A stretch of DNA of 64,000 nt from an uncultured Candidatus Bathyarchaeia archaeon (GTDB taxonomy: Archaea; Thermoproteota; Bathyarchaeia; Bathyarchaeales; DTEX01), in NCBI GenBank assembly GCA_964431725.1, contig CAYSKG010000003.1, forward strand, positions 2,215 through 66,214. Reading direction: 5' to 3'. The notes beneath the pieces were generated by a model, which searched no databases, was not told where the DNA came from, and saw nothing but the letters and a program-made list of their open reading frames with translations. A program made the position numbers and the translations under genes. Position 1 is the first letter of the stretch. Each line of letters begins with the position of its first letter. Below are positions 7,759-44,494 of the stretch, piece by piece.

Positions 7759-8529
7759 CTATGATTTAACATTTTTCTTTTTCACTCCAATGGTTTGCTC
7801 CTTAAATGGATTGAGAGATGGAAAAGCTTGAATACATACCTTAAGGATTGGGGGGCCGAGAATTATGAGGAATGGTATTTCAGTTGCGAAAGTCCATATT
7901 AACCATATGAAAGCCACATATAGAGGTAATTGAAAGCCCCCTCCAACTGCAGCTGGTAAAACAAATATTTGGCTATAGGCCCAGACTGCGAAGCCTATAA
8001 TTGTGCTACCCACTCCTAAACCTATTATTGATGCTATACCATAACCCCTCCACTGGGGCCATACATATCCTACAATAATCATCAGAGCATAGCTTGCAAT
8101 AGAAAGCCCTATAAATAGAATTACAGCATTAAGTGATACGTAGACTAGCAACAAATATTCCAACAAAGCGAATCCAGCCAAAAGAATTATGCTTGTCACG
8201 GCGATGGTTTTAGTCCAATCTATTCTCTTCCTTGAAATGTATCCAATGAGATAAAAGCCGATAAAGTTAGCTGTCACCCCGGCAGAGAGACTGAGTAGGG
8301 GATCATGATGTATTAGGAGATCACTTATGAATATGCCTATGGCGGCCCCTAAACCGCCAACTAAGGGGCTGAAAAGTACCGCAAAGACTGCGGGGATTAC
8401 AACTGAAGGCCAAAATCTAACTATGCCGACTCCGGGAGTTGTTATGGGAGCTAGTAAGTAAATCATGTAACCAACGACGCCGTATAAAACCCCGCATAGG
8501 GCGCTTGCGATAATATCTATCGCCCTCAT
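7759..8529 (-). CDS. Polytopic membrane protein, ECF-transporter S-component-like (possible vitamin/pantothenate uptake)
   Basis: 256 aa with about 6-7 hydrophobic helices and a Gly-rich helix LVGGLGAAIGIFISDL as in ECF substrate-capture subunits. The functional call is from context only. Confidence 0.4.
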   Translation of the reverse strand: MRAIDIIASALCGVLYGVVGYMIYLLAPITTPGVGIVRFWPSVVIPAVFAVLFSPLVGGLGAAIGIFISDLLIHHDPLLSLSAGVTANFIGFYLIGYISRKRIDWTKTIAVTSIILLAGFALLEYLLLVYVSLNAVILFIGLSIASYALMIIVGYVWPQWRGYGIASIIGLGVGSTIIGFAVWAYSQIFVLPAAVGGGFQLPLYVAFIWLIWTFATEIPFLIILGPPILKVCIQAFPSLNPFKEQTIGVKKKNVKS

Positions 8530-10200: not shown

Positions 10201-10446
10201 CTAATCACTATTCCTCTCTTCACTCTTGATTTCATACAGAATTACCAGAGCCTCGCCCAGAGGCACACCTAGTTCCGCGGCAAGTCTCCTAGGCGTTATA
10301 TCCGGCTGCTCTCGAATTACCTTTTCCTTAACATAAGATCTATGATGCTTATACATCACCATCGCATGAACCGTCTCAACAAGTATCGGCCAGAGCGGAT
10401 CATTCACATATTTGCTGAATTCCTCATTCATAAACCATCGCTCCAA
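10201..10446 (-). CDS. Small hypothetical protein with a C-terminal HTH-like segment
   Basis: 81-aa ORF with ITPRRLAAELGVPLGEALVIL resembling an HTH. Start possibly at MNEEF (10431). No family recognised. Confidence 0.3.
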   Translation of the reverse strand: MERWFMNEEFSKYVNDPLWPILVETVHAMVMYKHHRSYVKEKVIREQPDITPRRLAAELGVPLGEALVILYEIKSEERNSD

Positions 10447-12170: not shown

Positions 12171-12680
12171 CTATTTGCTTAAATTCATTTTTTCCTTAAT
12201 AGCCCCAGCTATTTCCTCAGCTCTTTTTATCCCTAGCTGTGTTATTCTATACTCTCCCTCAGATACTTTCTCAATTAAACCTCTATCAATAAGTTTTGGT
12301 AACTCATTACTTATGGTTTTTCTAGCTTTCCTAGTCAATCTCGAAAGCTCAGTTGGAGATAAAGTGTCTTTTTGAAGCTTTCCAACCTTGTTACCCATAT
12401 ACGCTCCTAGAAGAACAAGGCAAATAGCATTTCTAGCGGACAAAACAACGTTTGGATTAATTACTGGTCCATCAGAGGTTATTTCCATTAACCCTGTAAT
12501 TTCATCAGCTATTTTAATTAAGTCTGGCGTGTAGATTATTTTCTGGAGCGCTCTTATACTGGGATAAATTTGCGATAGAAATCTTAGTATAGATTCAAAA
12601 ACTTGATCAGCATCTCCCTCAAAATCCACTTTTGTCTCATCAAACTCTAGATGCGCTTTAACCCAGCCAGTTTCATTCAC
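12171..12680 (-). CDS. Uncharacterised winged-helix protein, paralog A of a local family
   Basis: 169 aa. The C-terminal wHTH-like LSRLTRKARKTISNELPKLIDRGLIEKVSEGEYRITQLGIK aligns with the ORFs at 12684..13202 and 14083..14580. Confidence 0.6.
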   Translation of the reverse strand: MNETGWVKAHLEFDETKVDFEGDADQVFESILRFLSQIYPSIRALQKIIYTPDLIKIADEITGLMEITSDGPVINPNVVLSARNAICLVLLGAYMGNKVGKLQKDTLSPTELSRLTRKARKTISNELPKLIDRGLIEKVSEGEYRITQLGIKRAEEIAGAIKEKMNLSK

Positions 12681-12683
12681 CTT

Positions 12684-13202
12684 TTATCCTTCCTCTGGCT
12701 TGATTCTAGGTAAGATTTCATCCAAAAAGAACTTTATACCTAGAGTTGTTATTTTATATTCTCCTCGCCCAACTCTTTTAACTAAGCCCATATTTGTGAG
12801 CTCGCTTAGGCGAGCTGCAACAGTTCCACTCTTACTGCCAGTGGCGGTCATGATCTCGGCTGTAGAGAGAGAATCTCTGTCTAAGCGGCCAATTTTGTAT
12901 CCAATATACGCTTTAATAAGATTTAACATTATTATGTTTCGGTCTCCACCTAACTTTCCCCGCGGGACGATTACTACTGGACCTTCTGGTGTGAACGCGA
13001 TCAAGCCTTTCACGCTTTTTATGAGTTCTTCTAAATTGACTGTTAAGATTAGTTGGGAGGCAAGGTCATAGGTTGGGAGATATTCGCTTATGAATTTAGA
13101 AAAAGCCTTTATAACCTCATCAGGTTTTCCAGTGAATTTTGTTTCAACGTCTTTATATTTTACAGTTAATTCTAGATTGGCTTCCTCGCCATACATTCTC
13201 AT
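12684..13202 (-). CDS. Uncharacterised winged-helix protein, paralog B
   Basis: 172 aa, with FTGKPDEVIKAFSKFISEYLP, FTPEGPVVIV and TGSKSGTVAARLSELTNMGLVKRVGRGEYKITTLGIK. It is 3 nt from paralog A. Confidence 0.6.
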   Translation of the reverse strand: MRMYGEEANLELTVKYKDVETKFTGKPDEVIKAFSKFISEYLPTYDLASQLILTVNLEELIKSVKGLIAFTPEGPVVIVPRGKLGGDRNIIMLNLIKAYIGYKIGRLDRDSLSTAEIMTATGSKSGTVAARLSELTNMGLVKRVGRGEYKITTLGIKFFLDEILPRIKPEEG

Positions 13203-13270
13203 TCACGGACCTCATCTTCACATATATTAGGCTCAGCTTAAAGATTTTTCGCCGGAGATTGGTGGTTAAA

Positions 13271-13312
13271 AACAAAATATTATTTTAATGTTTTAAACAA
13301 ATATATTTTGTT
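13271..13312. repeat. Perfect 10-bp inverted repeat in the divergent intergenic region of the wHTH cluster
   Basis: AACAAAATAT (13271-80) and ATATTTTGTT (13303-12) are separated by 22 bp. The background is AT-rich, so chance is not excluded. Confidence 0.4.
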
Positions 13313-14063
13313 GTTTTCAGAGCGGTGTTTGGAGGAAAATAAAAGATTGAGCATATCTAAGCTTTTACCTAGACGTTTAAGCTTCTCAAAGATCTGCGAT
13401 ATTTTGGTTGCATATCTGAACTCTGGTGCAGACAAAAAATATGTTAGCGTAAGCGACGTGGCAAGCAAATCAACAGTTACATTACACAATATTAGCCGTA
13501 ATAACGGCTTCCTTAAAAGCTGGGGATTTATAGAGGAAAGCGAAAAGGAGCAGGGGAAATACAGACTCACGCACGAAGCTGCTGAGTTCGCTTACGCTTA
13601 TCGAATAGACCCTAATGGGAACTTAACTAGAGATCTTTTAAGGAAAATTCTATCTAAAGACGAAGTTTTAGTAAAATTTGTTGAACGCGTAAAAAATGAG
13701 AACCTAAATAGAGAAACTGTTCTTATAGAATTACCGAGGGTTACCGGCGATCTAAGGGCCGATAAAGTTGGGCTTAATGCCTTTCTAGAATTAATAGCTT
13801 ACGCTTTTCAGATAGACTGGTTGCATAAGCCTATAAAACCGTCTAGACCTGCAAGAAAAATTGTTTCCCAACCAGAAGTTAGAAGAGTAAAGCACATTGC
13901 TAAAAGAAAGGTCAGCCTTCCCATAGGAATTAGTGAACCACATGCAAGCATTTCAATAAACTTAAATTTAACAATAAGTCCGGAAATACCTCCCACAATC
14001 CTAAAAAAATACGTTAAAGCTATGCTTGAAGCCTATGACGAATATGCTCAGGAAAAATCCTAA
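13308..14063 (+). CDS. Uncharacterised protein with an N-terminal winged-helix domain and a basic linker (related to the neighbouring paralogs)
   Basis: 251 aa, with SVSDVASKSTVTLHNISRNNGFLKSWGFIEESEKEQGKYRLTHEAAEF and a basic stretch KPSRPARKIVSQPEVRRVKHIAKRK. The start may be the TTG at 13347. Confidence 0.5.
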   Translation: MLFSERCLEENKRLSISKLLPRRLSFSKICDILVAYLNSGADKKYVSVSDVASKSTVTLHNISRNNGFLKSWGFIEESEKEQGKYRLTHEAAEFAYAYRIDPNGNLTRDLLRKILSKDEVLVKFVERVKNENLNRETVLIELPRVTGDLRADKVGLNAFLELIAYAFQIDWLHKPIKPSRPARKIVSQPEVRRVKHIAKRKVSLPIGISEPHASISINLNLTISPEIPPTILKKYVKAMLEAYDEYAQEKS

Positions 14064-14082
14064 TAATTAATTGGGGGCTTAT

Positions 14083-14580
14083 TTAGGTTTGATAAGATTG
14101 CTTTAGCTTCGGTATAACTTTTTCCTCAATCCAGAATTCGCCTTTGGGGCTTAGAGTCCACTCAGGTTTCTCCAACGTCGGTTTGAATACTAAACCACGT
14201 TTAGCCATTTCATTCAATCTGGAGGACACTTGAACTCTTAAACCTGAATATTCAAGAAGCCGCCTTATCTGCGATGGCCTACTGCTCCTATTTTCAGAGA
14301 AATAAAGGATCAAGCCTACGGCTTCATAATGTGTTATAAGCTTGGTGTCCTTTAGGATGAGAACTGGACCGGTCTCCGTGAATTTCACTATGTCATTAAA
14401 TTCTGTATCGCTTTTGTTTGGCATAACCATTTCTGAAATAACGGCTTCTATTTCACTGACGAAGTTTTCTGGCAGAGACTTGAGGGTATCAAGTAAGTCG
14501 CCAGCTGTTAACCCTTCAATAATTATTTTACCGAAGGAAGTCTTTATTTCTGCTTGAATCCGCCCCAAGAAGCATCCCAT
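14083..14580 (-). CDS. Uncharacterised winged-helix protein, paralog D
   Basis: 165 aa, with IIEGLTAGDLLDTLKSL, FTETGPVLIL and SQIRRLLEYSGLRVQVSSRLNEMAKRGLVFK. It has the same architecture as A and B. Confidence 0.55.
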   Translation of the reverse strand: MGCFLGRIQAEIKTSFGKIIIEGLTAGDLLDTLKSLPENFVSEIEAVISEMVMPNKSDTEFNDIVKFTETGPVLILKDTKLITHYEAVGLILYFSENRSSRPSQIRRLLEYSGLRVQVSSRLNEMAKRGLVFKPTLEKPEWTLSPKGEFWIEEKVIPKLKQSYQT

Positions 14581-14646: not shown

Positions 14647-16551
14647 TCATTTAGACAGCATCCGCGTTATTCTCTCCTTAATCATCCGGTTCACCATCTC
14701 TGGCTTAACTCTTCCTCTTAAATTCTTCATCACCATGCCCATTAACACACCCACCGCATTTAATCCTCTCCTCATTATTAAATCTCTGTTTTCATCCATG
14801 TATTTGCTTATTATTGATTCAAGTTCCTCCTTTGAGAGCATGGTTAAGCCTAATTCTCTAACAGCATCCATCGGTTTAGCATCCTTATGCTCGGCAAGCC
14901 ACCTTACAATCTCCGGTATAGCTTCCTTAGACGTTTTTTCCAGACTTACAAGCCTAAAGATCTCAATGATCTGTTTATCGGTTAAGGCTTCGATTTTTAC
15001 GCCATCACGCTTGAGAGCCTTGAAAGTTTCTGTTAATGTTGCAGCGACAACTGTAGGAGCAAATCCTGTTTCTTTAACAATAATCTCAAAAAGATCACTG
15101 TACTCTGAGTCTAATAGCTGTCTAGCTAATTTCTCATTTATGTGATAGCTTTCCATTAGCCTCTTAATTTTCTCCTCTGGAAGCTCCGGCAGCTTCTCCT
15201 TCAGCTCATTCACATATTCGCTGGTTATCTTTATTGGAGGAACATCCGTCTCAGGATACATCCTGGCGGCTCCAGGTCTAGGCCTCATATATCTTGTTGT
15301 TCCGTCTGGTTTAGCTGCACGCGTTTCTTCTGGGACACCTTTAAGCGCTTCACGTGCTCTTTCAACAACCGCTTTAAGAGCATCTCTAGCATTCTCAATA
15401 TTATCTGCAACCAGCACGATGGCATCTTCAACTTCAGCATTCATTTTCCTCCTTAGTTCAGCGATCTCCGTTTCTGAGACGCCGTAAGATTGAAGTTCAT
15501 CAGTGTGGAGTATCCCTCCAACTCTTCCCCAGAATTTTGCTCTATCAGATAGTTCGCTTCCAAATCTTAATCCCGGGATCAGCTCTGAACCTAATAAGCC
15601 AGCGAATTTAGGTAGTTTAACCGCCAATATTGTTTTGTTCCGGCTTATAGCTTTACGTAGAATACGGCATTTTGTTTCTCTAAACACTGGCGTAACGTCA
15701 ATAAACTCTTCCTTTAGATCCTCCTCTCTGAGGCCACGCTTCTTTAATTCCTCGCGAATTCTTAGAAGATTTAGTTGACGTTGTACTTCATACTCGATAA
15801 CTTTAGAGATGAGACCGAGCTCTTGAACACCCTTAATCTCTATTAAGGCTCCATCTCTAATGGATATGTTTAGATCTTGCCTTATTGTTCCAATTCCACG
15901 TTTAACTCTTCTGGTAGCTCTTAGGATTCTGCCTATTGCTAAAGCAACCTTTTCAGCCTCCTTCGGCGTGTTTATTACAGGCCCAGTTGTAACTTCTACA
16001 AGAGGAATGCCGAGCCTATCAATTCTATAGCGTATTATAAAGCCTTCTTCACCCATTTTTCTGGCGGCATCCTCTTCAAGGCTTATGTGTTGAATAGGCA
16101 CCTTCTTACCATCAACGATTATAAAACCATTTAGGGCTACCACACATGTTCTCTGAAAACCAGTCGTATTAGATCCATCTATAACTATTTTGCGCATGAC
16201 ATATATTTCGTCAACGGGTTTAGCGTTCATCATAAGCGCTATCATTAGAGCTATCTCTAAGGCTTCACGATTAAGCTCATGAGGAGGCTCTTCATCCATC
16301 TCAACAAGACAAGAGGTTTCACTATTAGCTTCATAGAGTATTTTTACACCCTTCTTAAACTCAAAGTATGCGGCAGGATCTATCTGACCTAATTCGCTCT
16401 GCGTTGGCCTCAATCTACGTAGAAACAATATTTCCGGATCGCCTTTAAACAATTCAGGCTTGCATCCGCAGAAAAGTTTTTCACGGGTTGCAAGCTGTTG
16501 ATGGCATTCTAAACCAACTTTAAGACCTAGCTTCTCATAGTCAATTCTCAG
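14647..16551 (-). CDS. gatE: Glutamyl-tRNA(Gln) amidotransferase subunit E
   Basis: GatE-type body. The conserved N-terminus (R)IDYEKLGLKVGLECHQQLATREKLFCGC lies upstream of the first TTG (16452). The frame opens after TAA at 16554..16552, so the start is probably CTG 16551 or ATT 16545. Confidence 0.9.
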   Translation of the reverse strand: MRIDYEKLGLKVGLECHQQLATREKLFCGCKPELFKGDPEILFLRRLRPTQSELGQIDPAAYFEFKKGVKILYEANSETSCLVEMDEEPPHELNREALEIALMIALMMNAKPVDEIYVMRKIVIDGSNTTGFQRTCVVALNGFIIVDGKKVPIQHISLEEDAARKMGEEGFIIRYRIDRLGIPLVEVTTGPVINTPKEAEKVALAIGRILRATRRVKRGIGTIRQDLNISIRDGALIEIKGVQELGLISKVIEYEVQRQLNLLRIREELKKRGLREEDLKEEFIDVTPVFRETKCRILRKAISRNKTILAVKLPKFAGLLGSELIPGLRFGSELSDRAKFWGRVGGILHTDELQSYGVSETEIAELRRKMNAEVEDAIVLVADNIENARDALKAVVERAREALKGVPEETRAAKPDGTTRYMRPRPGAARMYPETDVPPIKITSEYVNELKEKLPELPEEKIKRLMESYHINEKLARQLLDSEYSDLFEIIVKETGFAPTVVAATLTETFKALKRDGVKIEALTDKQIIEIFRLVSLEKTSKEAIPEIVRWLAEHKDAKPMDAVRELGLTMLSKEELESIISKYMDENRDLIMRRGLNAVGVLMGMVMKNLRGRVKPEMVNRMIKERITRMLSK

Positions 16552-16582: not shown

Positions 16583-17932
16583 TTAGGTCCTTATGGTTTT
16601 TGGAGGCTCGATGTGCTCAACTGTTCTATTCGAGAATTCATTTGCAATATTGGTTAGAAGAAGCTTTTTGATCTCTTTAGGATCTTTGGTTTGGGCTAAA
16701 CACCACATCATCTTAACAAGGGCTGTTTCAGCCAGCATGTCTCCTAGCGGAATAACCCCCATTGCCAGCAGATCTCTACCATTAGAATAAACATTCATGT
16801 TTACGCGTCCCCAGATACATTGGGATGTCATAGCGACTATCACGCCGCTTTCTATTGCATTTTTAATGGCGGGAAAACATTCGCGACGGATGTGACCTAA
16901 ACCGCTTCCCTCCAAGATTATACCCCTATAGCCTTTTGAAACATGCCAGTCGATAATTTCAGGGTTCATACCAGGATAAAACTTTATTAATGCAGCCCTA
17001 TCATCGAAATTGGCCTTTAAGGTAAGCTTCCGCTTTGGATCTCTAGGTCGATAATCATCCGCCAACATAATAATATCGTTATTAATGATTCTTGCAAGAG
17101 GCTTGGCATTTATAGTTTTAAACGCATCCCTACGGCTTGTGTGACACTTTCTAACCTTCGTTCCCCTGTGTAAAACTATTGATTCATCTGAGGGTGTCTC
17201 ATGCATTGCAACAGAAACCTCAGCGAAGGGCGCTTTTGAAGCTGCCAAAACCGCGCCTATGAGATTCAAAGCTGCGTCAGAGCTAGGTCTATCCTCAGAT
17301 CTTTGGGCGCCGACAAATACAACTGGAATGGGCAGATCTTGCAGTGCAAAACTTAGAGCTGCAGCTGAATAACCCATTGTGTCGGTTCCATGCGTTATAA
17401 CGATTCCCTGAACACCTTTAGAAATGTGTTTGGCGACGGCCCTAGCGATGGCTGACCAGTGCTTGGCTGTTAGATCCTCACTGAAAACACTGAAGAGGAT
17501 CTCCGCATTGATAACCGCTATATCTGATAGTTCCGGCACGATGCTATATAAGTCGTCCGCTGAGATTACGGGTCTAACAGCACCAGTTCTATAATCAACG
17601 CGACTAGCTATGGTTCCTCCGGTACTTAGGATAGTGACTTTTGGAAGATCCGGTCTTTGTTTTGGTGGGGACGGGGGGATAAAAGACGGTTTTGCTTCAG
17701 TTCTAATTCGCTCTATTTTGGTTGTCGGCGTGATTTCTATTCCAATATTATAGCCGGATTTTGTTTTTATCACTATATGCTTGTCATCGCTATACTCGGA
17801 TCTGGGAATTAAAATCCCTTCATAAGTGCAATCATTCTTGGTTATGCGTATTAAATCTCCGATTTTAGCTTTGATCTTGATAAGCGCTTCCAAAGCTGAA
17901 CCTTTATAGCCGGGCAGATTCTCGCTCATCAT
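16583..17932 (-). CDS. gatD: Glutamyl-tRNA(Gln) amidotransferase subunit D (asparaginase-like)
   Basis: 449 aa, with asparaginase motifs LSTGGTIAS and ITHGTDTMGY. It lies directly upstream of gatE. Confidence 0.9.
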   Translation of the reverse strand: MMSENLPGYKGSALEALIKIKAKIGDLIRITKNDCTYEGILIPRSEYSDDKHIVIKTKSGYNIGIEITPTTKIERIRTEAKPSFIPPSPPKQRPDLPKVTILSTGGTIASRVDYRTGAVRPVISADDLYSIVPELSDIAVINAEILFSVFSEDLTAKHWSAIARAVAKHISKGVQGIVITHGTDTMGYSAAALSFALQDLPIPVVFVGAQRSEDRPSSDAALNLIGAVLAASKAPFAEVSVAMHETPSDESIVLHRGTKVRKCHTSRRDAFKTINAKPLARIINNDIIMLADDYRPRDPKRKLTLKANFDDRAALIKFYPGMNPEIIDWHVSKGYRGIILEGSGLGHIRRECFPAIKNAIESGVIVAMTSQCIWGRVNMNVYSNGRDLLAMGVIPLGDMLAETALVKMMWCLAQTKDPKEIKKLLLTNIANEFSNRTVEHIEPPKTIRT

Positions 17933-18306: not shown

Positions 18307-18412
18307 CAGTCTAAAATAGGTTCACCACTCACTTAAATGATTTATCATAAAGAAAAGCTTTTCAATGATAAAAATGTTGCATTAAAATCCGGTTTTCAGC
18401 CGAGAGGGGTAC

Positions 18413-19015
18413 TCAATGGTTACCTTTGAAGTCAGCTAAGATTTTTTCTTTGACTGTCTCAAAATGTTCTGGAAGCTTCTGCGGTGGAAGCTTTCTAGCT
18501 AAGTACTCCGAGAAGTGTCTCGAATATTTCTCCGGATTCTCCGTCGCCAGCATCTCAGCATATTTTGCTATATGTTCTCCACGTATTCTGGATTCATCGG
18601 GAAGTATTGATTCGTCATGCGGCACTTCAATTCCTGCGTCTAAGAAGCCTTTCATTGCAGCGAATACGCCAGCCCCTTTAGAGGGAGTATGTAAGCCTAT
18701 ATCCAATATGGCTTTTTTGATTCCTTTGGCTGAAGCCCTCAAACCGCATAGAAGCCCAGTTAGATATGCTGCAGGAAGATTGTTCAGGCTTCCGAGCCAA
18801 CCATACTTTTTTCTGAGCTCACGGGAGTGGGCTGACGTCATAACTATGTCGCCTATAACAGTTGCCCTTACTAGCTGAGTGATGATGTTTCTTCCCGTTT
18901 TTCTGACAACCAATCTAGGTAGCTTGGATATTATGAGCTTTTTTCTCTGCCTATAATCTGTTTTGCCTTCTCTTCTTCTCCTAAATGGAACATTGTAGGA
19001 TGGGCCTCTCGCCAT
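18413..19015 (-). CDS. rpl18: Ribosomal protein uL18 (L18/L5e)
   Basis: [19 protein letters not shown]-terminus and position in the operon. Confidence 0.93.
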
Positions 19016-19482
19016 TAACGCTTCCTCCTTAAGTCATGGACTTCAATATAGCGATGTAGGTCTGAAACAGATCTGAAAACTCCGCTTTTAGCCTTGAGAT
19101 ATAGTTGACGGTAAACCCTTGTCGTTATTATACGCTTCTCTTTGAGCTTGCGTAGTCTTCTTCTTAAGGCTCTAATCTTCTCCACCCAGGCCCTTTTCAG
19201 TTTAGCTCTAGTCTTCTTTGAACCGCTTCTGCTTCCAGCTCCCCTACGCCGTCCCTTCTTTCTCTTTTCATGCAATATGCGTGCACGAGCCCGGCTGACG
19301 CCTTTCTCTTTGAGCTTTCTTATCGCTCCTTCATGGATTAGCCTTCTTATATCTTCTCTTGTTATTGCAGCCTCAACGTCTTCAAGTCTCTCAGGATCTA
19401 TCCAAACTCTTCCCTCGCCTACGCCGAGAACCTCCGCCGCCATTCTACGTTGGCTCCTCAAATTCAAAATCGACACCTCCAC
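19015..19482 (-). CDS. rpl19e: Ribosomal protein eL19
   Basis: [23 protein letters not shown] and a basic [15 protein letters not shown] tract. Confidence 0.93.
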
Positions 19483-19488
19483 ATTCAG

Positions 19489-19923
19489 CTAGGTTTTTAC
19501 TGTTTTCTCAGCCTCTAACTCCACGGTTACCCCAGGGTTTAGAATGTGTATACCTAGTTCTTTCGCTCTATTAAGAATTTCAGCTCTTTTCCTTGCTCCA
19601 ACTGTATGAGCTATTCTTATGGCTTCCGTTTCAGGATTAATTTTTCTTAAATCATCAATGTTATAAACGAGAACTTCCTTAAAGGCTGATGGATGGAGAC
19701 CTCTAGCTAGTTTAGGTCCTCTATAGCCAATGTTAACCGTAGCTGGCCAACCTTTTACTTTTCTGCGCATTTTGCTGTCTATTCCCCTAGGTCTTCTCCA
19801 GCTCTCTTTTATGCGTTTATAGCGCCAGCTCTCCTGTCGGCGGAACTCAGGCTTCTTACTCTTAATTTTTTTCCTGAGTTCAACTAGCTTTTCTAGGTCT
19901 TGATTTTCTGGTTTGCTACTCAA
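19489..19923 (-). CDS. rpl32e: Ribosomal protein eL32
   Basis: WRRPRGIDSKMRRKVKGWP and AHTVGARKRAEI. Confidence 0.92.
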   Translation of the reverse strand: MSSKPENQDLEKLVELRKKIKSKKPEFRRQESWRYKRIKESWRRPRGIDSKMRRKVKGWPATVNIGYRGPKLARGLHPSAFKEVLVYNIDDLRKINPETEAIRIAHTVGARKRAEILNRAKELGIHILNPGVTVELEAEKTVKT

Positions 19924-20468
19924 TCAACTAATCCCTCCAGCTTTTCATACACATATATTCCGTCCAAGAACCTTCGCGGGTCCCTATTCTTTATTTTTGT
20001 TGCTTGCTCTATGTTTGCAGCTGTTTGGCTGACCTCCTCAATGTTTATTCCCTGAACTATTACGTCATCTCCGCTAACCTTAACTTTCACGTCGCCGAAT
20101 ATCTTCGCAACTCTAGGCGCTCTCTCACCCATAAAGTTTTCTATTAAAATTTTATCTCCATCAACCTTAACGGAAACTGGAAAGTGCGCGAAAACGATTT
20201 TAAGCTTATATGTAAAACCTTTCGTTACACCTGTAATCATGTTTCTAATGTGAGAGCTGACGGTTCCAACACAAGCTTTCTCTCTTTTCTTGGGCCATAG
20301 AGCTGAAACCTCAACTTCGTCGCCTACAACCCGGATTGAAACAGGATGTCTCGAGAAGTCTCGGACAAGCCGCCCTAGCTTGCCCGTGACCTCTACTATA
20401 TTCCCCTCTACATTAACTTTAACGCCTTCCGGAATCTTAACTTTCCTGACTTCAATATTTCTCTGCAT
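19920..20468 (-). CDS. rpl6: Ribosomal protein uL6
   Basis: Two-repeat L6 pattern IPEGVKVNVEGNIVEVTGKLG and operon position. Confidence 0.92.
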   Translation of the reverse strand: MQRNIEVRKVKIPEGVKVNVEGNIVEVTGKLGRLVRDFSRHPVSIRVVGDEVEVSALWPKKREKACVGTVSSHIRNMITGVTKGFTYKLKIVFAHFPVSVKVDGDKILIENFMGERAPRVAKIFGDVKVKVSGDDVIVQGINIEEVSQTAANIEQATKIKNRDPRRFLDGIYVYEKLEGLVD

Positions 20469-20492
20469 TCTATGATTCTCTCCGGGCGGTCT

Positions 20493-20882
20493 CTAATATA
20501 CGTATGCTAAAAGCTTCCCTCCGATTCCTCTCTTTCGGGCTTCTATATGTGACATGACTCCCTGAGAGGTCGTCACTATTAGTATGCCCATATTTTTAGC
20601 TGGGAGATAGTTTTTCTCCCAGTTTTCAAGATCTTTAACCTTAAACGAATATCTAGGTCTTATGGCTCCGCACTTATTTATTCTGCCTAGGAGCTGAACC
20701 CTAAATTTTCCGGTTCGCCCGTCATCAATAAACTCAAACTCACCAATATATCCATTCATCTGCATAACTCTGAGCACATTGCCCAGTAGCTTTGAGGCTG
20801 GCATTATATAGCATTCCTTTTTACGTCTCATCTCATTATTCATTATTGTTGTTAAACCATTTGCTATAGTGTCCAGATTCAT
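20493..20882 (-). CDS. rps8: Ribosomal protein uS8
   Basis: [20 protein letters not shown] and a C-terminal GGKLLAYVY. Confidence 0.93.
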
Positions 20883-20906
20883 GTGAGCATAAACCTCCTT
20901 TTTAGG

Positions 20907-21071
20907 CTAATTGTATTTCTTGAAGCCTAATTTCTCAGCGACCTCCCTAAAGCAGTGGCGACAGAGATTTAGACCATACCTTCTTATTATTGGACCATAG
21001 GATCCGCATCTTCTACAGGGTCTACTACCCTTACCAAACTTTCTCTCTTTTCTCTGATTTTTTTTACTCAT
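20907..21071 (-). CDS. rps14: Ribosomal protein uS14 (Zn-ribbon type, 54 aa), absent from the supplied ORF track
   Basis: My manual translation of the minus strand gives [54 protein letters not shown]. It has a CxxC...CxxC pattern and lies between S8 and L5 as in all archaea. Confidence 0.9.
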
Positions 21072-21623
21072 CTACTTTCCCTCCACCACTTCGACACCAA
21101 GCTCTTCTTTTACAAATGCTATTGCTTCTTCAACTGTTAGCTTATGTTTTGAACCAACTTTAGATTTTGCACGCCGCCTATATTTAACCCTATAGCCCGG
21201 TCTACGTAATATAACCGTTATATCCATGCCTATTATACCTAGATCCGGCGAATATTTTGTGCCAGCTATGTCAATGTGTTCTCTAATACCGAAAGAGAAG
21301 TTTCCGGACTTATCAAAGGAGCTTGCCGGGATTCTATTGTCAACAGCATCTAAAGCTCTCTTTAGGAAATCCATTGCCCTTTCACCTCTCAAGGTAACCA
21401 TGCAAGCTATTGGTTCTCTACGCCTTATCCCGAAATCCCTTATAGTTTTCTTTGCTCTTCTAAAGCAAGGTTTCTGACCGGTTAGTTCCTCTATTATTTT
21501 CATAGCTTTTTCCAAGGGTTCACCGGATTTTCCAACAGATACATTAACAACTACCTTTTCAATTCTAGGTTTGAGCATGGGGTTTGACTCCCACTTAGCC
21601 TTAAAGTCTTCAGCTGCCAGCAT
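21072..21623 (-). CDS. rpl5: Ribosomal protein uL5
   Basis: NPMLKPRIEKVVVNVSVG. The ORF runs to 21668, but MLAAEDF at 21623 fits homolog N-termini and gives a short overlap with S4e. Confidence 0.92.
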   Translation of the reverse strand: MLAAEDFKAKWESNPMLKPRIEKVVVNVSVGKSGEPLEKAMKIIEELTGQKPCFRRAKKTIRDFGIRRREPIACMVTLRGERAMDFLKRALDAVDNRIPASSFDKSGNFSFGIREHIDIAGTKYSPDLGIIGMDITVILRRPGYRVKYRRRAKSKVGSKHKLTVEEAIAFVKEELGVEVVEGK

Positions 21624-22386
21624 AAATCTCCTCCATACCACGCAGAGATATTCTTGGAGTTTTATCACCTATAACAAATACGTAATCTAATATTGTGCGG
21701 TAGGTTTCTCCCTTATTATCTTCAATAGTTACTAGGTTTCTTCTCCTTTTAATTGAACTTCGCTCATCAATCTCTCTAATAATACCATGTTTACCAATAT
21801 TCTCTCCATCTATAAATAGCGCCAGCATGCCGATTTCCAATCTCAAATGCTCAAGTATCTCTTGACTTGGCAGACTTATCTTTAAGGTATCAAATGTTCG
21901 ATAAATGTTTCCGGCCGGATTACTTGGGTCTTCACTACGTATAAGTATATTCCTTCCATCATGAAGATTAAGTTGGATATGACCACCATTCACTGTTGTT
22001 TTATTCTCAATTCTACAGATTTTGTATTTTGCTTCTTCATCATCTATCTCATGAAGAATCAAACCTTTCTCAGATGGCAAAACTCTATAGTTTACATTTA
22101 TTTCAGGGATTGAAACAACATCCATCAATCCGACAGGAAAATGCTCATCACATCTAACTCTTCCATCAACCAAAATCTTACCCTGGGCAATTATCTTCTT
22201 TGCCTCTCTCATGGTTTTAGCGAAGCCAAGCAGATCACGCACAATTATTCCTAGGGGTATACACCGCTCGATTGGATGAGGGCCAGGACTAGGTTTAAGG
22301 GCCCAAACGAACTTTTTCCTGTGTATGGGCCAGAATTTGGGAGTTACCTCCCGCTTGAGATGTCTTTTCCCACCCATTTTCCCCAT
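21610..22386 (-). CDS. rps4e: Ribosomal protein eS4
   Basis: GGKRHLKREVTPKFWPIHRKKFVWALKPSPGPH. Confidence 0.93.
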   Translation of the reverse strand: MGKMGGKRHLKREVTPKFWPIHRKKFVWALKPSPGPHPIERCIPLGIIVRDLLGFAKTMREAKKIIAQGKILVDGRVRCDEHFPVGLMDVVSIPEINVNYRVLPSEKGLILHEIDDEEAKYKICRIENKTTVNGGHIQLNLHDGRNILIRSEDPSNPAGNIYRTFDTLKISLPSQEILEHLRLEIGMLALFIDGENIGKHGIIREIDERSSIKRRRNLVTIEDNKGETYRTILDYVFVIGDKTPRISLRGMEEIYAGS

Positions 22387-22389
22387 GTT

Positions 22390-22836
22390 CTATGCACCTT
22401 TAATGTTTGTTTGAACCTTAGCTTCTTCTTTCACTGAAGCCTCCTTCAGATTCTTTGTTTCTTCAATAACCCCTCTTCTCTCTAATATCTTTTTCCTAAA
22501 TTTATCATCGAGATTTAGGCGTATAATTTCAACATTAGATGGGTGGATTGGAACGAGTATGGTTGTTCCATCAGCTTTTTCGCGGGTTATTCCCTCAATG
22601 AATATGCGATATTTCTTTCTGTCAACTCTCATAACTTTTCCTTCAACACCCTTATAGTCTCCTCTGAGAACCCTAACTGTATCACCTGTTCTAACTGGAA
22701 GAGACCTAGTGTTGTAAGTTGACCTTAGCTCTGAGGACAAATGAGCTGAAAGAATTTTCCCGCGGATATGATAGGGAGCTTGAAAGAGTCTTTTCCTCTG
22801 CTTGCTCGGTTTAACAGTTTTACTTTTCATAAGCAT
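22390..22836 (-). CDS. rpl24: Ribosomal protein uL24
   Basis: [17 protein letters not shown] and a KOW motif [18 protein letters not shown]. Confidence 0.92.
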
Positions 22837-22855
22837 ACAACCACCATTTTTCTCT

Positions 22856-23296
22856 TTATATTATTATGCTGGCGGCGCTGGCTATTCTCGGCCATCTCTC
22901 AGCAGCCTCTCTGGCAACTGGACCACGAATCTCCGACCCCCGCATTTCACCGTCAGGCGTTATGATTACTGCTGCGTTATCTTCGAATTGAACCCATATG
23001 CCTTCTGGTCGCCTGTAGGGTTTTCTTTGTCTGACTATTACTGCATGAAATAGTTTTTTCCGCATGTCTGGCGTTCCCTTCCTAACTGAGACAACTACAG
23101 CATCTCCTACTGAGGCAGCTGGAACTCTTCTATGTCTACCTTTGTATCCTATTACTTGTACTAATCTGAGAACTTTGGCGCCTGAATTATCGGCGCATTT
23201 GATTAGCGACCCTACGTTTATACCCTTGCTTATTTTAACCTTTGGTTTTCCAGCACCTCTTGCGCGTAAACCTCTAGTTTTTGCTTTGGCTGCCAT
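22856..23296 (-). CDS. rpl14: Ribosomal protein uL14
   Basis: [11 protein letters not shown] and a [14 protein letters not shown]-terminus. Confidence 0.93.
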
Positions 23297-23301
23297 CTAG
23301 A

Positions 23302-23619
23302 TCACTTCTCCAACTTTTCTATTACGACGAAAGAAACAGTCTTACTTATCGGTCTACATTCAGCGATTCTTACAACATCATTTTCAGTTGCGTTTATGCA
23401 GGGCGGGTTGTGAGCTGGTATGTGACTGTGCCTCCGCTCATAACGCTTGTATTTGGGCACATATTTGAGGTAGTCACGTCTAACTATTACAGTTTTATCC
23501 ATCTTTGCGCTTACAACGACGCCCTCAAGTATCCTACCTCTAATCTTTAGGGACCCGTGAAATGGACAGTTTCGATCATTACATGTTTTCTCAGGTTTTT
23601 TAATTGATTCAAGCGACAT
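23302..23619 (-). CDS. rps17: Ribosomal protein uS17
   Basis: CNDRNCPFHGSLKIRGRILEGVVVSAKMDKTV. Confidence 0.92.
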   Translation of the reverse strand: MSLESIKKPEKTCNDRNCPFHGSLKIRGRILEGVVVSAKMDKTVIVRRDYLKYVPKYKRYERRHSHIPAHNPPCINATENDVVRIAECRPISKTVSFVVIEKLEK

Positions 23620-23901
23620 TTACCAATGTCTCCTAATTATCTTCTTAACCCTATCTTCTGGGCGACCAATTAAAACTTTACCGTCAACCTCAACAACCGT
23701 TTTATCAGGTAAAGTAAAATGGAAAACACAATTCTCTTTAATTAAAATTTTCTCTTCACCTTTACAGAGTATTCTAAATGTGTTTCTAGTTTCATCTATA
23801 ATTTTACCAGATAAACCAACGCAGCTTGGATTTGTACATTTAACAACCTTAACATTTAATCCAATAAATTCATCTTGAAGGATATAAGACAGATCTCTCA
23901 T
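23620..23901 (-). CDS. rnp1: RNase P protein component 1 (Rpp29/Pop4)
   Basis: EFIGLNVKVVKCTNPSCVGLSGKIIDETRNTF. It holds the conserved archaeal position between L29 and S17. Confidence 0.85.
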   Translation of the reverse strand: MRDLSYILQDEFIGLNVKVVKCTNPSCVGLSGKIIDETRNTFRILCKGEEKILIKENCVFHFTLPDKTVVEVDGKVLIGRPEDRVKKIIRRHW

Positions 23902-24113
23902 TTTACTCCCCTCATTTCCTCATTATTTACAGTTAATATACGGGCTATCGTGCGCTTAATCTCTCGAATCCTAGCTGGTTTCTCAATGGCACCGCCAGCC
24001 TTAACCATGGTTCTTAACCTGATTAGCTCAGTCCTTAGCTCTCTCAACCTTCTTTCTCTCTCCTCACGGGACATTTTCCTGATTTCCCTCATTTTCAGAA
24101 TTGCCATCCGCAT
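23898..24113 (-). CDS. rpl29: Ribosomal protein uL29
   Basis: LKMREIRKMSREERERRLRELRTELIRLR. Confidence 0.9.
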   Translation of the reverse strand: MRMAILKMREIRKMSREERERRLRELRTELIRLRTMVKAGGAIEKPARIREIKRTIARILTVNNEEMRGVK

Positions 24114-24127
24114 TCAACCTCCATGAT

Positions 24128-24772
24128 TTAGGTTTTTTCAGTTCCGCTTTCAGTCTGATCTTGATTTTCTTCACTTACCTCTTCTAGAAGCTCTACCTCA
24201 TCCGGAAACTTCGCATCTGGAGAAACTATGAGAACTTTAACACCAAAGATACCGGGCTTAAGCTGAACATGTGCAACTGCCTTCTTAACGTATCTCATAG
24301 CGGGCTCTCCACTTTTCGGGATGTAACCATCTCGGAATTTTTCAACTCGAGCACGCTCAGTTCTGAGTTTACCGCTTATGATTATTTCAGCTCCTAGGGC
24401 TCCGGCACTCATTATTCGATTTAAAGCCCAGAAGCCAACTCTTCTGAAGTGAACGCCTCTTCTAAGTGCGGCAGCTATTCTAGAAGCCATAACATACGGG
24501 TTTAGCTCAGGAATTTCAATTTCAGCTACAGAAATCTGCGGATTTGGAAGATTAAATTTTTCTTCTAAAACTTTGGCGAGATTTTTTATTGTTTCTCCGC
24601 CACGCCCTATAACTATCCCCGGTCGCATAGCATATATAACTATGTTTGTGCCTAGAGGAGTTCTCGTTATGCTTACTCCTCCATAACCAGCTCTTTCAAA
24701 TTCTTTCCAAAGAAACTCATCTATCTCAGCTTTTTTAATGTACTCATTTATGAAATGTTTAACATAAGTCAT
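24128..24772 (-). CDS. rps3: Ribosomal protein uS3
   Basis: KH-domain GIVIGRGGETIKNL, 214 aa, operon position. Confidence 0.92.
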   Translation of the reverse strand: MTYVKHFINEYIKKAEIDEFLWKEFERAGYGGVSITRTPLGTNIVIYAMRPGIVIGRGGETIKNLAKVLEEKFNLPNPQISVAEIEIPELNPYVMASRIAAALRRGVHFRRVGFWALNRIMSAGALGAEIIISGKLRTERARVEKFRDGYIPKSGEPAMRYVKKAVAHVQLKPGIFGVKVLIVSPDAKFPDEVELLEEVSEENQDQTESGTEKT

Positions 24773-24775
24773 TAT

Positions 24776-25246
24776 TTATCCCTCTCTCACCTGTTCCAGA
24801 ACTATTTCAACATGACATAGAGTTTCGAATTTTGGAGTTGCTCTGCCAAATGCACGCGGCATATACCTCTTAATCTTGGTACCCGGGTAAGCTGCCGCAT
24901 GGATTATTTTGAGCCTTTCAACATCTAGACCTTTATAGTCAGCGTTTGCCTCAGCGCTTTCGAGAACCTCAAGAATCTTGGATGCGGCTTTAACCGGATA
25001 TCTACCAGCCATAGCCTTCTGCAGTCCTCTCCTATGGGGGAGTTTCTTATTGTAGCGTCTAAATGGAACAGCTTTCTTTTTCGCAATTACTTGTCTTAGG
25101 TACTCCTTTGCTTCATCAAGCATCATTCCCTTTATTGCAGCGCAGACTTCCCTCGCTGCTTTAGGCGATATTCTGAGCTCTCTACCGCTTGCTTTAGCGG
25201 TGGTGTCTGGATCAAGATCTATTATAGAGTATCCCCAATTTGGCAC
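24776..25246 (-). CDS. rpl22: Ribosomal protein uL22
   Basis: AKASGRELRISPKAAREVCAAIKGM. Confidence 0.92.
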   Translation of the reverse strand: MPNWGYSIIDLDPDTTAKASGRELRISPKAAREVCAAIKGMMLDEAKEYLRQVIAKKKAVPFRRYNKKLPHRRGLQKAMAGRYPVKAASKILEVLESAEANADYKGLDVERLKIIHAAAYPGTKIKRYMPRAFGRATPKFETLCHVEIVLEQVREG

Positions 25247-25360
25247 GTTTCATTCACCGTTCTTGCTGAAAACAAAAATACATAGTGATTTATAAGAATT
25301 TTCCCCAGGCCTTTCATTACGAAAGAAACGTTACTTTTTATAAGTAAATTGTGGAGGAAT

Positions 25361-25645
25361 TTATCCTCCACCAATGACAGTCATGAGGGTTAGTACATCT
25401 CCATCTTTAAGTTTAATCTCGCTTCGATCAGTTAAGTTTACCGTTGAATCATTTAAGGTTACTATGAGGGTTGGGTCAACAGAGTTTTCCTCTCTATAAT
25501 TCACTAAATCTTTTAACTTTTCGTGAGCTTTAACGATTCTGTCAAGCAGATCTCTAAGTGAGGAGCCTTCTGCTAGTTCGTATTCTTCCTCTTTCTTACC
25601 CACTTTATGTCTAACAACGCCTAAATAAACAACTTTAATCTTCAT
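25361..25645 (-). CDS. MoaD/ThiS-family ubiquitin-like small protein (SAMP-like)
   Basis: 94 aa with a beta-grasp pattern, and a C-terminus DGDVLTLMTVIGGG ending in Gly-Gly-Gly. Confidence 0.55.
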   Translation of the reverse strand: MKIKVVYLGVVRHKVGKKEEEYELAEGSSLRDLLDRIVKAHEKLKDLVNYREENSVDPTLIVTLNDSTVNLTDRSEIKLKDGDVLTLMTVIGGG

Positions 25646-25803
25646 AGATCTCTGAGAGAATTTTGTTTGAGAAAAATTTAAACTTTCTTATTAACGGATT
25701 GATCTAGATTTTTATAAAACAACCAAAAAGCTGTCGAGCATCTTTTTATATATTACGCCCGTAATATTTTATTTTGATTCGTCTTAAAGAGGTTTAAAAG
25801 GCA

Positions 25804-26355
25804 TTGTCCAACGAGGAAAATCTTTGCTCAAGCATAAAATATTTAGATTTCATATTTGAAAATGAGTTAGTTACAGTTATTGCTGTTAGAAACGCTCCTA
25901 AAATAGAGCTTATTGGCTTTTCTGTGGGACCCTTTGAAGAGGGACATGAATATGAAGTTAGATTATGGGTGGCACGTGAACTTGAGAAGGACGGTATAGT
26001 TAAGATTAGAGAGCATATGCTAGATGCCACTAAACTTTATAAAATTCAGTGGACAGAACGCATTCAAGCCATCGGGCAGCTTTCAACCCTACCGGAAGAT
26101 TTTTATCCTCGACTTAGACGGTTAATTGATGAGTTAAAAACTGCTTCAAAAACGAGTTTAGATAAAATGAGAGAATACGAGTATGTACGAAATCTTTCAC
26201 GGGACATAGTTAATTGCAGACTCAGAAAGATAGTGTCTTTAGCCTCGCTTCCTACACAAGAAAGCCAGATTTTAAAGAATCTTACTCCTGAGGAGAGAGA
26301 ATTATACGGACATGTACGCCGGATCATAAGTGAATGGAGGTCTAAAATAGTTTAG
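25804..26355 (+). CDS. GINS subunit, Gins23-type domain order
   Basis: A small beta domain (GPFEEGHEYEVRLWVARELEKDGIVKI) precedes a helical domain (YPRLRRLIDELK...NCRLRKIVSLA). It lies directly upstream of mcm. TTG start. Confidence 0.65.
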   Translation: MSNEENLCSSIKYLDFIFENELVTVIAVRNAPKIELIGFSVGPFEEGHEYEVRLWVARELEKDGIVKIREHMLDATKLYKIQWTERIQAIGQLSTLPEDFYPRLRRLIDELKTASKTSLDKMREYEYVRNLSRDIVNCRLRKIVSLASLPTQESQILKNLTPEERELYGHVRRIISEWRSKIV

Positions 26356-26376
26356 GTTGGGGGCGCTCCTAGGAAA

Positions 26377-28419: not shown

Positions 28420-28452
28420 AGGTTGTATAAAGAAAAGTAAAAGGGTTAAGCC

Positions 28453-30693: not shown

Positions 30694-30928
30694 AGATTTT
30701 CAGGGCATTAATCCCTCTTCCCCGATTTATGTGAAAATTTACATCCAATAGAAAATTCTCAAATTAATAGATGACCCCCTCCCCCCGACTAATAAAATAA
30801 GTATTCTAGGAACAAATTTTCGAAAAAGATAAAATGAAGGGTTCTCACTATACTATCATAGCGCTGATGATTAGAGATTAAAATAATTGCCATCGCTGTC
30901 TAGTGGATGGATGGGGGAGGTGAGAAAG

Positions 30929-34329: not shown

Positions 34330-34440
34330 GAAAATATCTCTATTGGAAATAGATTTATCGGTTTCTTAGTTAACTGGCTGAGAATAGAACATTCATTCAA
34401 TTAATATTGGCCCAAGGATCCGTCTCTTCTGACAACATTA

Positions 34441-34517
34441 AATCTGATGATGAAACCGAAAATTCTCTCGCTTAACTTTAATGTTTACATGATCAATTGT
34501 AGTTTCATTATCAGATT
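34441..34517. repeat. 16-bp inverted repeat (hairpin with a 45-nt loop) in the HAD/ade intergenic region
   Basis: AATCTGATGATGAAAC (34441-56) pairs with GTTTCATTATCAGATT (34502-17). This is 15 Watson-Crick pairs plus one G:T on the plus strand. Confidence 0.6.
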
Positions 34518-34592
34518 AAATTGATTTCTTTTTAGTCAAATAAGTACATTTGAAGGCTAATAATTATTTTGCCAATAATATTCAAGGGGCTT

Positions 34593-35261: not shown

Positions 35262-35368
35262 CTTCGATTACACCATTGCAGTAAACACTTAACCTAAATT
35301 TCAAAAATAAAAATATGTAAGCTTTTATATTGTTGAGAGATTTTAAAAGTATTTTCAGTTGACTTAGA

Positions 35369-36427: not shown

Positions 36428-36470
36428 ACTTGATAAAAAGATTTTTTTATTATATTGCTAACTTTTTATT

Positions 36471-37414: not shown

Positions 37415-37463
37415 TTATCTTCACCCGGATTCCTTTTGATCGTACTAAGGAAAGATTAATATT

Positions 37464-37916: not shown

Positions 37917-38021
37917 TACACTCCCTTCAATAAGGAATTCTTAATTCAGTTATATAAATTATGTGATTAAAATAAATATTTTATCGTAAAATATTAAAGA
38001 ATCTTTGCAATTTCCGAAATA

Positions 38022-42202: not shown

Positions 42203-42220
42203 TTATTTAAGTGACTAAAT

Positions 42221-43339: not shown

Positions 43340-43383
43340 ATTGACAGATTTATTAGGGAAGAGTGGAAGGGGAGTACTCATAG

Positions 43384-44373: not shown

Positions 44374-44494
44374 GAAAATTTGAATCATAACCTTTAAAAA
44401 GAGTTAAAAAGTCGGGAAATTAACATTATTCTACTGAAAAATGGAAGCACATTAGAGAAGCCTTCTCCCTCGGCAAGTAAGGAGAGAAATATGA

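Follow-up and report, generated by a model that had tools for sequence, protein, structure and literature searches.

This work concerns a compact cluster of four genes, here named A, B, C and D, in a 64-kb stretch of DNA from an uncultured Candidatus Bathyarchaeia archaeon (contig CAYSKG010000003.1); that whole stretch, at its full length, is called the window throughout. An open-reading-frame (ORF) check of the window recovered all four ORFs that a first-pass annotation, made from the letters alone, had placed in the cluster (Table 1). The housekeeping flanks that it had noted (thiolase, gatE) were also found, the cluster being bounded by genes for a thiolase and a DUF35-type protein on one side and by gatE and gatD on the other. 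Gene D lies straight downstream of gatD-gatE on the same strand, and for C the start at 13329 is preferred to the first possible one because homologs indicate so. Three of the four products form one protein family, whose relatives in other archaea are encoded beside NurA-like nucleases and HerA-like ATPases and, in one form, are fused to such an ATPase.

Table 1. Coordinates, strand and main properties of the winged-helix cluster, its anchor genes and the HerA/NurA-like pair of the window
Feature	Position in window	Strand	Description
Protein A	12171-12680	-	169 aa; acidic N-terminal alpha/beta domain and basic C-terminal winged helix (predicted); second gene of the B-A operon
Protein B	12684-13202	-	172 aa; best-conserved family member; predicted beta-beta-alpha, loop, alpha-beta-beta, winged helix, C-terminal helix
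B/C divergent spacer	13203-13328		BRE/TATA-like element at 13236-13251 and AT-rich 10-bp inverted repeat
Protein C	13329-14063 (first possible start 13308)	+	244 aa; 251 aa from 13308
Protein D	14083-14580	-	165 aa; 161 aa from annotated start; distant paralog of A/B
gatE	14647-16452	-	Pfam GatB_N/GAD; conserved anchor neighbour of the A/B/D family
gatD	16583-17932	-	Pfam GatD_N/Asparaginase; conserved anchor neighbour of the A/B/D family
HerA-like ATPase	50669-52150	+	493 aa; Pfam DUF87, 57 bits
NurA-like nuclease	52154-53326	+	390 aa; Pfam NurA, 24 bits against a cut-off of 21

The cluster had been described as four related winged-helix proteins, three of which (A, B and D) align by eye over one architecture. 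Sequence comparison shows A and B to be plainly paralogous (BLASTP: 35% identity over 144 aa, E=6e-28), and D, whose similarity to A and B is undetectable by BLASTP, is a distant paralog that is seen by profile comparison only. The alignment by eye holds because hhalign, run on ortholog profiles, joins D to A/B with 97.1% probability (E=6e-11) over 139 colinear columns that include the (F/I)T.EGPV motif and the winged helix; in a merged alignment of all three proteins the common blocks are F.G...helix, (F/I)T.EGPV and the winged helix. Relatedness does not extend to C, which shows no paralogy to A, B or D (hhalign probability 1%) and has only a generic winged helix in common with them, and the cluster therefore consists of three related proteins and one unrelated winged-helix protein.

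The A/B/D proteins are predicted to be made of an N-terminal beta-beta-alpha...alpha-beta-beta domain and one C-terminal winged helix. In the AlphaFold2 model of B, computed on the A/B alignment (mean predicted local distance difference test score, pLDDT, 85.8), the N-terminal half is composed of strands 10-16 and 19-25, helix 27-41, a low-confidence, disordered loop, helix 57-63 and strands 68-71 and 74-77, the FTPEGPV motif forming the second hairpin (68-77); the winged helix (87-151) and a final helix (153-167) make up the C-terminal half. A domain common to the N-termini of A, B and D is borne out, and so is the C-terminal winged helix, which is backed by sub-threshold Pfam matches to winged helix-turn-helix (wHTH) families (residues 101-158 in A), by the AlphaFold2 model and by Foldseek matches to MarR, CRP, ArsR and AspA, the B and C models giving probabilities of 0.99-1.0 for MarR/ArsR/AspA chains over ~75-150 columns. 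The two halves differ in charge, the N-terminal ones being acidic (isoelectric point, pI, 4.4-5.4; 4.4 in A) and the winged-helix ones basic (pI 9.6-9.8; 9.8 in A). When Foldseek compared the B and C models with PDB, and the B model with BFVD, matches were confined to the winged-helix half; the query TM-score does not exceed 0.37, and hence only half of the protein is matched.

The suggestion that the first halves are themselves degenerate winged helices fails against the beta-beta-alpha/alpha-beta-beta arrangement of the model and against a PDB sequence-profile search in which the N-terminal-only profile found no winged-helix protein, its weak matches (E ~0.01) being to ferredoxin-like designed proteins and MJ1052. 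That suggestion had carried the idea of a tandem winged-helix scaffold of the ESCRT-II type (endosomal sorting complexes that are required for transport), to which the kite/kleisin type associated with structural maintenance of chromosomes (SMC) proteins may be added. Subunits of ~170 aa with several paralogs per locus would suit either scaffold, and winged-helix proteins have been proposed as building blocks of archaeal ESCRT systems, whose loci show genomic association with ESCRT-III/Vps4 (PMC10936438). The predicted N-terminal half, however, contradicts the defining feature, one winged helix being modelled in B, and no Vps22/25/36 match was obtained; EAP30/ESCRT-II, ScpA/ScpB/kleisin and MukE are absent from the matches listed in Pfam (even at E<=10), PDB sequence-profile and Foldseek searches. 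No Vps4, ESCRT-III, CdvA-locus or SMC gene occurs in the Pfam-annotated gene lists of the retrieved loci, the C-profile and HerA-anchored locus sets described below having been screened only with custom hidden Markov models (HMMs) for the families studied. The only CdvA-like gene seen, a weak case, is in the Brockarchaeota-labelled locus L063, where it lies on the other strand, ~2.6 kb upstream and beyond three unrelated genes. The kite/kleisin form (ScpB/ScpA, MukE/F) was rejected for lack of matches, for the single winged helix of C and for the absence of SMC from Pfam-annotated flanks. We hold a tandem winged-helix scaffold to be extremely improbable.

No family in Pfam, NCBIfam or PDB fits A-D, and all Pfam and NCBIfam scores lie under the curated cut-offs: the best match of A/B is to HVO_A0261_N (28.5 bits against a cut-off of 35), with MarR_2 at 17 against 27 and TrmB at 13.5 against 25.6, while C and D have no such MarR/TrmB-type match in either database. 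PDB sequence-profile searches with A/B, D, C and N-terminal-only profiles returned nothing specific, a PADLOC scan of A-D gave only sub-threshold generic winged-helix matches, and full-text literature searches found no description of these protein families. Neither the fold elements nor the system type to which the partner enzymes belong is new; the winged-helix families themselves match no curated family, and A-D belong to unnamed, undescribed families, in keeping with the initial failure to name any.

Protein C proved, as first read, to be a divergently encoded protein with an N-terminal wHTH and a basic linker. In its AlphaFold2 model (pLDDT 81.9) residues 19-80 form a winged helix and residues 98-160 a four-helix domain; a basic, disordered linker (pI 11.9) comes next, and at the C-terminus a strand and an amphipathic helix make up the conserved pattern ISINL.ISPE..P..LK.Y.KA.L.AY; in the alignment of C orthologs the LHNISRNN.F and GDLRADKVG motifs are highly conserved and the linker is variable. 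A scan with the C profile over one genome per GTDB species recovered 45 archaeal loci, 43 of them labelled Bathyarchaeia/Bathyarchaeota (the other two being an "uncultured archaeon" and a 1-kb contig binned as Desulfurococcales), and two weak bacterial matches. Bacterial C-like proteins, on contigs labelled Anaerolineaceae (L056:5665-7389) and Actinomycetota (L055:4844-8577), have the N-terminal winged helix and the helical region of C at 24-30% identity, and a distant bacterial homolog keeps the layout of C; in the full-length Anaerolineaceae copy an NISRNNGFL motif and, at the C-terminus, an ININLNIEIRI strand followed by a helix are also present. This Anaerolineaceae gene adjoins MutS and a gene with an RNAADH (HEPN-like) motif, and the Actinomycetota gene lies near a DUF5906-like P-loop protein.

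The block formed by A-B, C and D beside gatD-gatE is conserved across Bathyarchaeia. More than 100 orthologs exist for each of B, C and D, at 43-100% identity among those listed (58-99% for the 120 listed for B, 55-100% for C, 43-99% for D); those that are named carry Bathyarchaeia/Bathyarchaeota labels with one exception ("Thermoproteota archaeon"; for B, too, all named but one), and their locus tags are often consecutive. Co-occurrence across related archaeal genomes was plain: A and B are divergent from C in 33 of the 38 C-anchored loci with enough flank, and D lies downstream of C in 22 of 41, with a second D-like paralog placed between B and C in some lineages. Sub-threshold scores and a syntenic gene block are not what scattered, ordinary MarR/TrmB paralogs would give. 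The family as a whole is broader: in a profile search of 1.84 billion representative proteins, 366 clusters at 50% identity reach E<=1e-3 (159 at E<=1e-10), with members also labelled Nitrososphaeraceae, Nitrososphaerota, Brockarchaeota, Geothermarchaeota and Verstraetearchaeota.

The cluster had been said to have no enzymatic partner. This holds at the window locus but not among relatives, which form operons with NurA/HerA-like genes or are joined in one polypeptide to a Ser/Thr kinase or a HerA-type ATPase. Five of the six contexts inspected outside Bathyarchaeia contain a HerA-like ATPase gene (Pfam DUF87), and four of these also a NurA-domain or NurA-like gene. With arrowheads marking the direction of transcription, the Nitrososphaeraceae-labelled locus L060 reads member> <E NurA>HerA>; the Brockarchaeota-labelled L063 reads D-like>AB-like>NurA-like>HerA, its genes overlapping by 4 nt or lying 3-6 nt apart; and the Geothermarchaeota-labelled L066 and contig L147 read (Elp3) gatD>gatE>E'>member> <E NurA>HerA>. 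The fifth context is the P0441 fusion described below, and the sixth, that of marine contigs L150/L151, has E, E' and a family member beside gatDE, NurA/HerA being absent from the 7 kb around them. Among Bathyarchaeia, the gene order in L002/L009 is gatE> D> <HerA<NurA<B<A<D2, and that in eight C-anchored loci is <HerA<NurA E> ... <A<B C>. Adjacency to, or operon structure with, NurA-domain and HerA/DUF87 genes recurs in L002, L060, L063, L066, L147 and the eight C-anchored loci, and is absent from the window locus, where the nearest pair is 36 kb off and of another clade.

Two further families, E and E', appear in these neighbourhoods; in both a linker joins an N-terminal beta-beta-alpha to a C-terminal winged helix, and neither is encoded in the window (examples are L027:5724-6209 on the plus strand, L060:8550-9086 on the minus strand and L079:2978-3427 on the plus strand); E' stands upstream of D and just reaches the Pfam Penicillinase_R cut-off. 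Homology of E to A/B/D was judged unproven (hhalign E=1.6e-3, probability 16%).

The association was also examined in the reverse direction, by anchoring 80 metagenome loci on the HerA clade. NurA was present in all 58 loci with enough flank, a divergent E protein in 54 of 54, and A/B/D-family genes in 17 of the 27 loci whose upstream sequence extends for 4.5 kb or more. Typically the genes run gatD>gatE>E'>D>B-like> <E NurA>HerA>, and there D is 47% identical to D of the window and the B-like copy 40% identical to B. Two mutually dissimilar HerA clades are both associated with the A/B/D family.

Domain fusion with a partner, as looked for in a NurA-HerA accessory module, is provided by P0441, a single ORF of 466 aa found on at least 13 contigs, in which a HerA-type ATPase (DUF87, 67 bits) is followed by a coiled coil and then, at residues 333-465, by an alpha-beta-beta–winged-helix domain of D-like type (73 bits). 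A second fusion, P0342, joins a Ser/Thr kinase to a B-like and then an A-like copy, both of which have lost the N-terminal beta-beta-alpha; if that element is a docking piece, its loss is as expected, because covalent linkage would make it redundant. Other variants are the membrane-anchored D-like proteins P0349 and P0356 and the family members P0425/P0471, whose N-terminal PD-(D/E)xK-like motif (PDG...YELK) is visible by eye only, Pfam finding nothing.

By its profile scores, the HerA associated with the A/B/D family is not the canonical repair helicase. Its best PDB sequence match is Sulfolobus HerA (E=2.7e-8), and it scores 23-44 bits against NCBIfam HerA_Thermprot (cut-off 800), 18-37 against helicase_HerA (cut-off 970), 27-42 against CedD (cut-off 600) and 27-52 against the antiphage HerA model (cut-off 800). 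The window has its own pair, in the order HerA then NurA, 3 nt apart and ~36 kb from the winged-helix cluster; its HerA-like protein is likewise far below all NCBIfam HerA cut-offs, and no winged-helix gene adjoins the pair. It is a possible partner of the cluster, as a candidate only.

Defence systems often contain HerA-like ATPases, and the winged-helix proteins and the NurA/HerA-like pair might accordingly form an anti-virus defence system or a mobile-element module. Weak matches of the associated HerA to defence-type HerA and mad8 models, the PD-(D/E)xK-like motif of some members and the HEPN-like and DUF5906-like neighbours of the bacterial C-like genes would agree with this. The genes, however, keep a position among housekeeping genes (gatDE, Elp3, and those for ribosomal proteins, Spt5 and prolyl-tRNA synthetase, ProRS) that is stable across classes, and they show high sequence conservation in a vertical-looking pattern; no PADLOC system model fits, with generic winged-helix and HerA matches only, and Foldseek of B against BFVD gave no full-length viral structural match. 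We judge a defence role to be very improbable.

Adjacency to gatD-gatE, seen in Bathyarchaeia, in L066, in L147 and in marine metagenome contigs, is the most widespread feature of the neighbourhood, and invites a link to GatDE, which is nearly universal in archaea, or to tRNA metabolism; the members might, for example, be winged-helix proteins that bind RNA and share a transcript with the Glu-tRNA(Gln) amidotransferase. On one strand of L147, gatE, E' and the family member do overlap, by 11 and 8 nt, and Elp3 and ProRS genes also occur in the region. Where gatDE is lacking (in L060, L063 and the P0441 fusion), members nevertheless remain together with NurA/HerA, no fusion to GatD/E occurs among the 150 best A/B/D family matches, the member in L150 is convergent with gatE and not co-transcribed, and D in the window is preceded by an AT-rich, TATA-like spacer of its own. 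A GatDE-linked role is, in our estimation, improbable.

The intergenic DNA bears on the question of a regulatory role. The 10-bp inverted repeat proposed as an operator upstream of C is indeed perfect, AACAAAATAT (13271-13280) pairing with ATATTTTGTT (13303-13312) in an AT-rich promoter region, and can be extended to 13 nt at 92%. Judged over at least 30 orthologous B/C spacers it occurs in the window/L001 and, in longer form, in L011 only, is degraded in L010 and is absent from the others; because it is not conserved, the operator reading was dropped. The widely conserved element of these spacers is instead a CGAAAAATCTTTAA resembling a transcription factor B recognition element (BRE) and TATA box, upstream of B; the window copy reads CGAAAAATCTTTAAGC on the minus strand, ~35-50 nt upstream of B, and an element of TTTAAAAGATTT type is found in most orthologous B/C spacers, in which no conserved operator was found beyond this core-promoter-like element. 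In the Bathyarchaeia that carry D2 (L044:7848-8000, L046:4457-4521, L051:7873-8000), the spacer upstream of C lacks the TTTAAAAGATTT element and bears one to three palindromes of TTTACGTAAA type (three in L051).

The spacers between E and NurA are of another kind. A 14-bp dyad, TTGNNCATGNNCAA, lies directly upstream of the TTTAAATA (TATA) box of the NurA-HerA promoter (for example L079:4808-4899, L083 and L097), some loci having the perfect palindrome TTGCGCATGCGCAA and the Nitrososphaeraceae-labelled L060 a related CATGCGCAATATTAATAAATA. All 52 occurrences of the dyad in 1.6 Mb of retrieved loci are at the NurA promoter, and there is none in the window.

Our tentative reading, to which we give somewhat short of an even chance, is that A, B and D, possibly with C, constitute a hetero-oligomer that binds DNA and serves a NurA–HerA machine as adaptor or control module, and that in this genome is unlinked from the machine. 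It is favoured because the adjacency recurs after rearrangement and with two HerA clades, in tight same-strand operons, and because a fusion to HerA exists and the fused forms lose the beta-beta-alpha. What the genomic data show is paralogy, a modelled fold, conservation, gene neighbourhoods and domain fusions; from these we infer oligomerisation, DNA binding and a physical or functional coupling to NurA-HerA. The three proteins would join through their acidic alpha/beta domains, the beta-beta-alpha/alpha-beta-beta domains mediating assembly or docking, and C would be a Bathyarchaeia-specific extra component that may join via the strand and helix at its C-terminus. The oligomer would contact DNA with its basic C-terminal winged helices, and the module would target, load or control the non-canonical NurA-like nuclease and HerA-like hexameric ATPase of Thermoproteota, by a logic comparable to that of FtsK, which owes its DNA specificity to a winged-helix gamma domain. 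In the lineage of the window the winged-helix genes would have stayed beside gatDE, with NurA-HerA no longer adjacent: the locus looks like a derived form of an older arrangement, in which gatD-gatE-D is kept, B and a duplicate A are present, C is inserted divergently and the E/NurA/HerA unit is missing.

Several observations weigh against the adaptor reading. The only HerA/NurA pair in the 64-kb window shows no similarity by BLAST to those HerA/NurA clades with which the winged-helix proteins are associated, and NurA/HerA lies within 8 kb in only 5 of the 30 C-anchored loci with at least 6 kb upstream, the window being among those without. The marine contigs keep E, E' and a member by gatDE in the absence of a nearby pair. 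Since the whole region (Elp3, gatD, gatE, winged-helix genes, NurA, HerA, ProRS) is syntenic across lineages, part of the NurA-HerA adjacency may be inherited gene order, and the conserved NurA-promoter dyad, together with the E gene that diverges there, is compatible with at least E being a simple transcription factor; the confinement of the dyad to that promoter argues for E as a dedicated regulator.

The same observations feed the main rival account, in which A, B and D (and C) are autonomous transcription or chromatin proteins that hetero-oligomerise via the N-terminal alpha/beta domain, by a logic akin to that of Lrp/AsnC-type regulators but with reversed domain order, their NurA-HerA/gatDE neighbourhood reflecting regulation or inherited synteny rather than a physical complex. 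The basic winged helices, with typical recognition-helix and wing sequence, would serve such proteins well, and the divergent arrangements of B/C in the window and of E/NurA in the HerA-anchored loci are of the autoregulator type. Three to five paralogs kept as a tight conserved block over class-to-phylum distances would be unusual for regulators, however, and closely spaced same-strand operons with NurA/HerA and the P0441 fusion also count against this account; the B/C spacers offer no conserved operator, and what is suggested for E extends to A/B/D only through a homology that is unproven. Autonomous regulators are a serious possibility, though on balance a doubtful one.

A bolder form of the adaptor reading would make A/B/D, E and E' unrecognised core subunits of a Thermoproteota-wide NurA-HerA-type machine, in which a ring or array of paralogous winged-helix proteins docks via beta-beta-alpha on the hexameric ATPase and confers specificity for DNA sites or DNA ends, in the manner of FtsK gamma and its FtsK-orienting polar sequences (KOPS), with C as a basic tether. 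We regard this as unlikely.

HerA-NurA is central to archaeal DNA end processing, and its targeting and regulation are poorly understood, above all outside the Mre11-Rad50 operons of hyperthermophiles. If the adaptor reading is true, a conserved multi-paralog winged-helix module linked to a divergent NurA/HerA pair would point to missing parts of an uncharacterised DNA-processing system in lineages (Bathyarchaeia and Nitrososphaeraceae-, Brockarchaeota- and Geothermarchaeota-labelled contigs) that are abundant and little studied. The winged-helix proteins and the 14-bp dyad at the NurA promoter are concrete candidates for experiment, and cultured Nitrososphaera relatives would be a tractable host if the locus is carried there. 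Should the proteins be ordinary regulators, the known winged-helix families of archaea would be enlarged only modestly.

Elsewhere in the window, 18400-30700 and 60030-61955 are dense in information-processing genes, including a ribosomal-protein operon, MCM (26377-28419), a Hel308-type helicase (28453-30693) and an aCPSF1/FttA-type beta-CASP nuclease (60030-61955). An 81-aa ORF (10201-10446, minus strand) by an Rpb5/RpoH-like gene contains a helix-turn-helix-like stretch, ITPRRLAAELGVPLGEALVILYEI; neither it nor a nearby 256-aa ORF (7759-8529, minus strand) has a Pfam match. G+C content is lower at 34000-38000 and 42000-46000 (0.35-0.37) than elsewhere (~0.40-0.42), and no tRNA gene was found across the window.

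Among the closest known systems are the MarR/ArsR/PadR/BlaI wHTH regulators, whose fold is found in the C-terminal 80 residues of A/B/D and in the N-terminus of C (Foldseek probability up to 1.0); unlike MarR-type regulators, A/B/D have no MarR dimerisation helices in sequence and model, and their extra N-terminal alpha/beta domain has no counterpart there. Lrp/AsnC (feast/famine) regulators combine a wHTH with an alpha/beta oligomerisation domain, the RAM (regulation of amino acid metabolism) domain. A/B/D similarly pair a winged helix of DNA-binding type with a small alpha/beta module that could drive (hetero-)oligomerisation, but in reversed domain order and as beta-beta-alpha...alpha-beta-beta rather than beta-alpha-beta-beta-alpha-beta, and no AsnC_trans_reg or HTH_AsnC match to them was found; Lrp-like and TFIIF-like readings were dropped for want of sequence, fold or context support. 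ESCRT-II (Vps22/Vps25/Vps36) likewise encodes several small paralogous winged-helix-containing subunits together, but A/B/D appear to have one winged helix per subunit, not two, and show no sequence or fold match to it.

The archaeal HerA-NurA end-resection complex (Sulfolobus/Pyrococcus; HerA PDB 4D2I) is comparable in that A/B/D relatives are encoded, often closely spaced, with genes for a DUF87/HerA-type ATPase and a NurA-domain protein. It differs in that the associated HerA scores so far beneath the HerA_Thermprot cut-off, that no Mre11 or Rad50 was identified in the A/B/D-associated operons and that the cluster in the window adjoins no HerA/NurA; full-text literature searches found no winged-helix accessory subunits or partners of HerA-NurA. 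The FtsK gamma domain, finally, is a winged helix that reads KOPS and thereby orients a hexameric DNA translocase of the FtsK/HerA superfamily. The A/B/D proteins are mostly separate polypeptides with an alpha/beta domain of their own and several paralogs, and the likeness is drawn as a functional analogy, no sequence or specific structural relationship to FtsK having been shown; what the two systems have in common is a winged-helix module attached to, or encoded with, an FtsK/HerA-superfamily ATPase, and in P0441, as in FtsK, the winged helix lies C-terminal to the ATPase.

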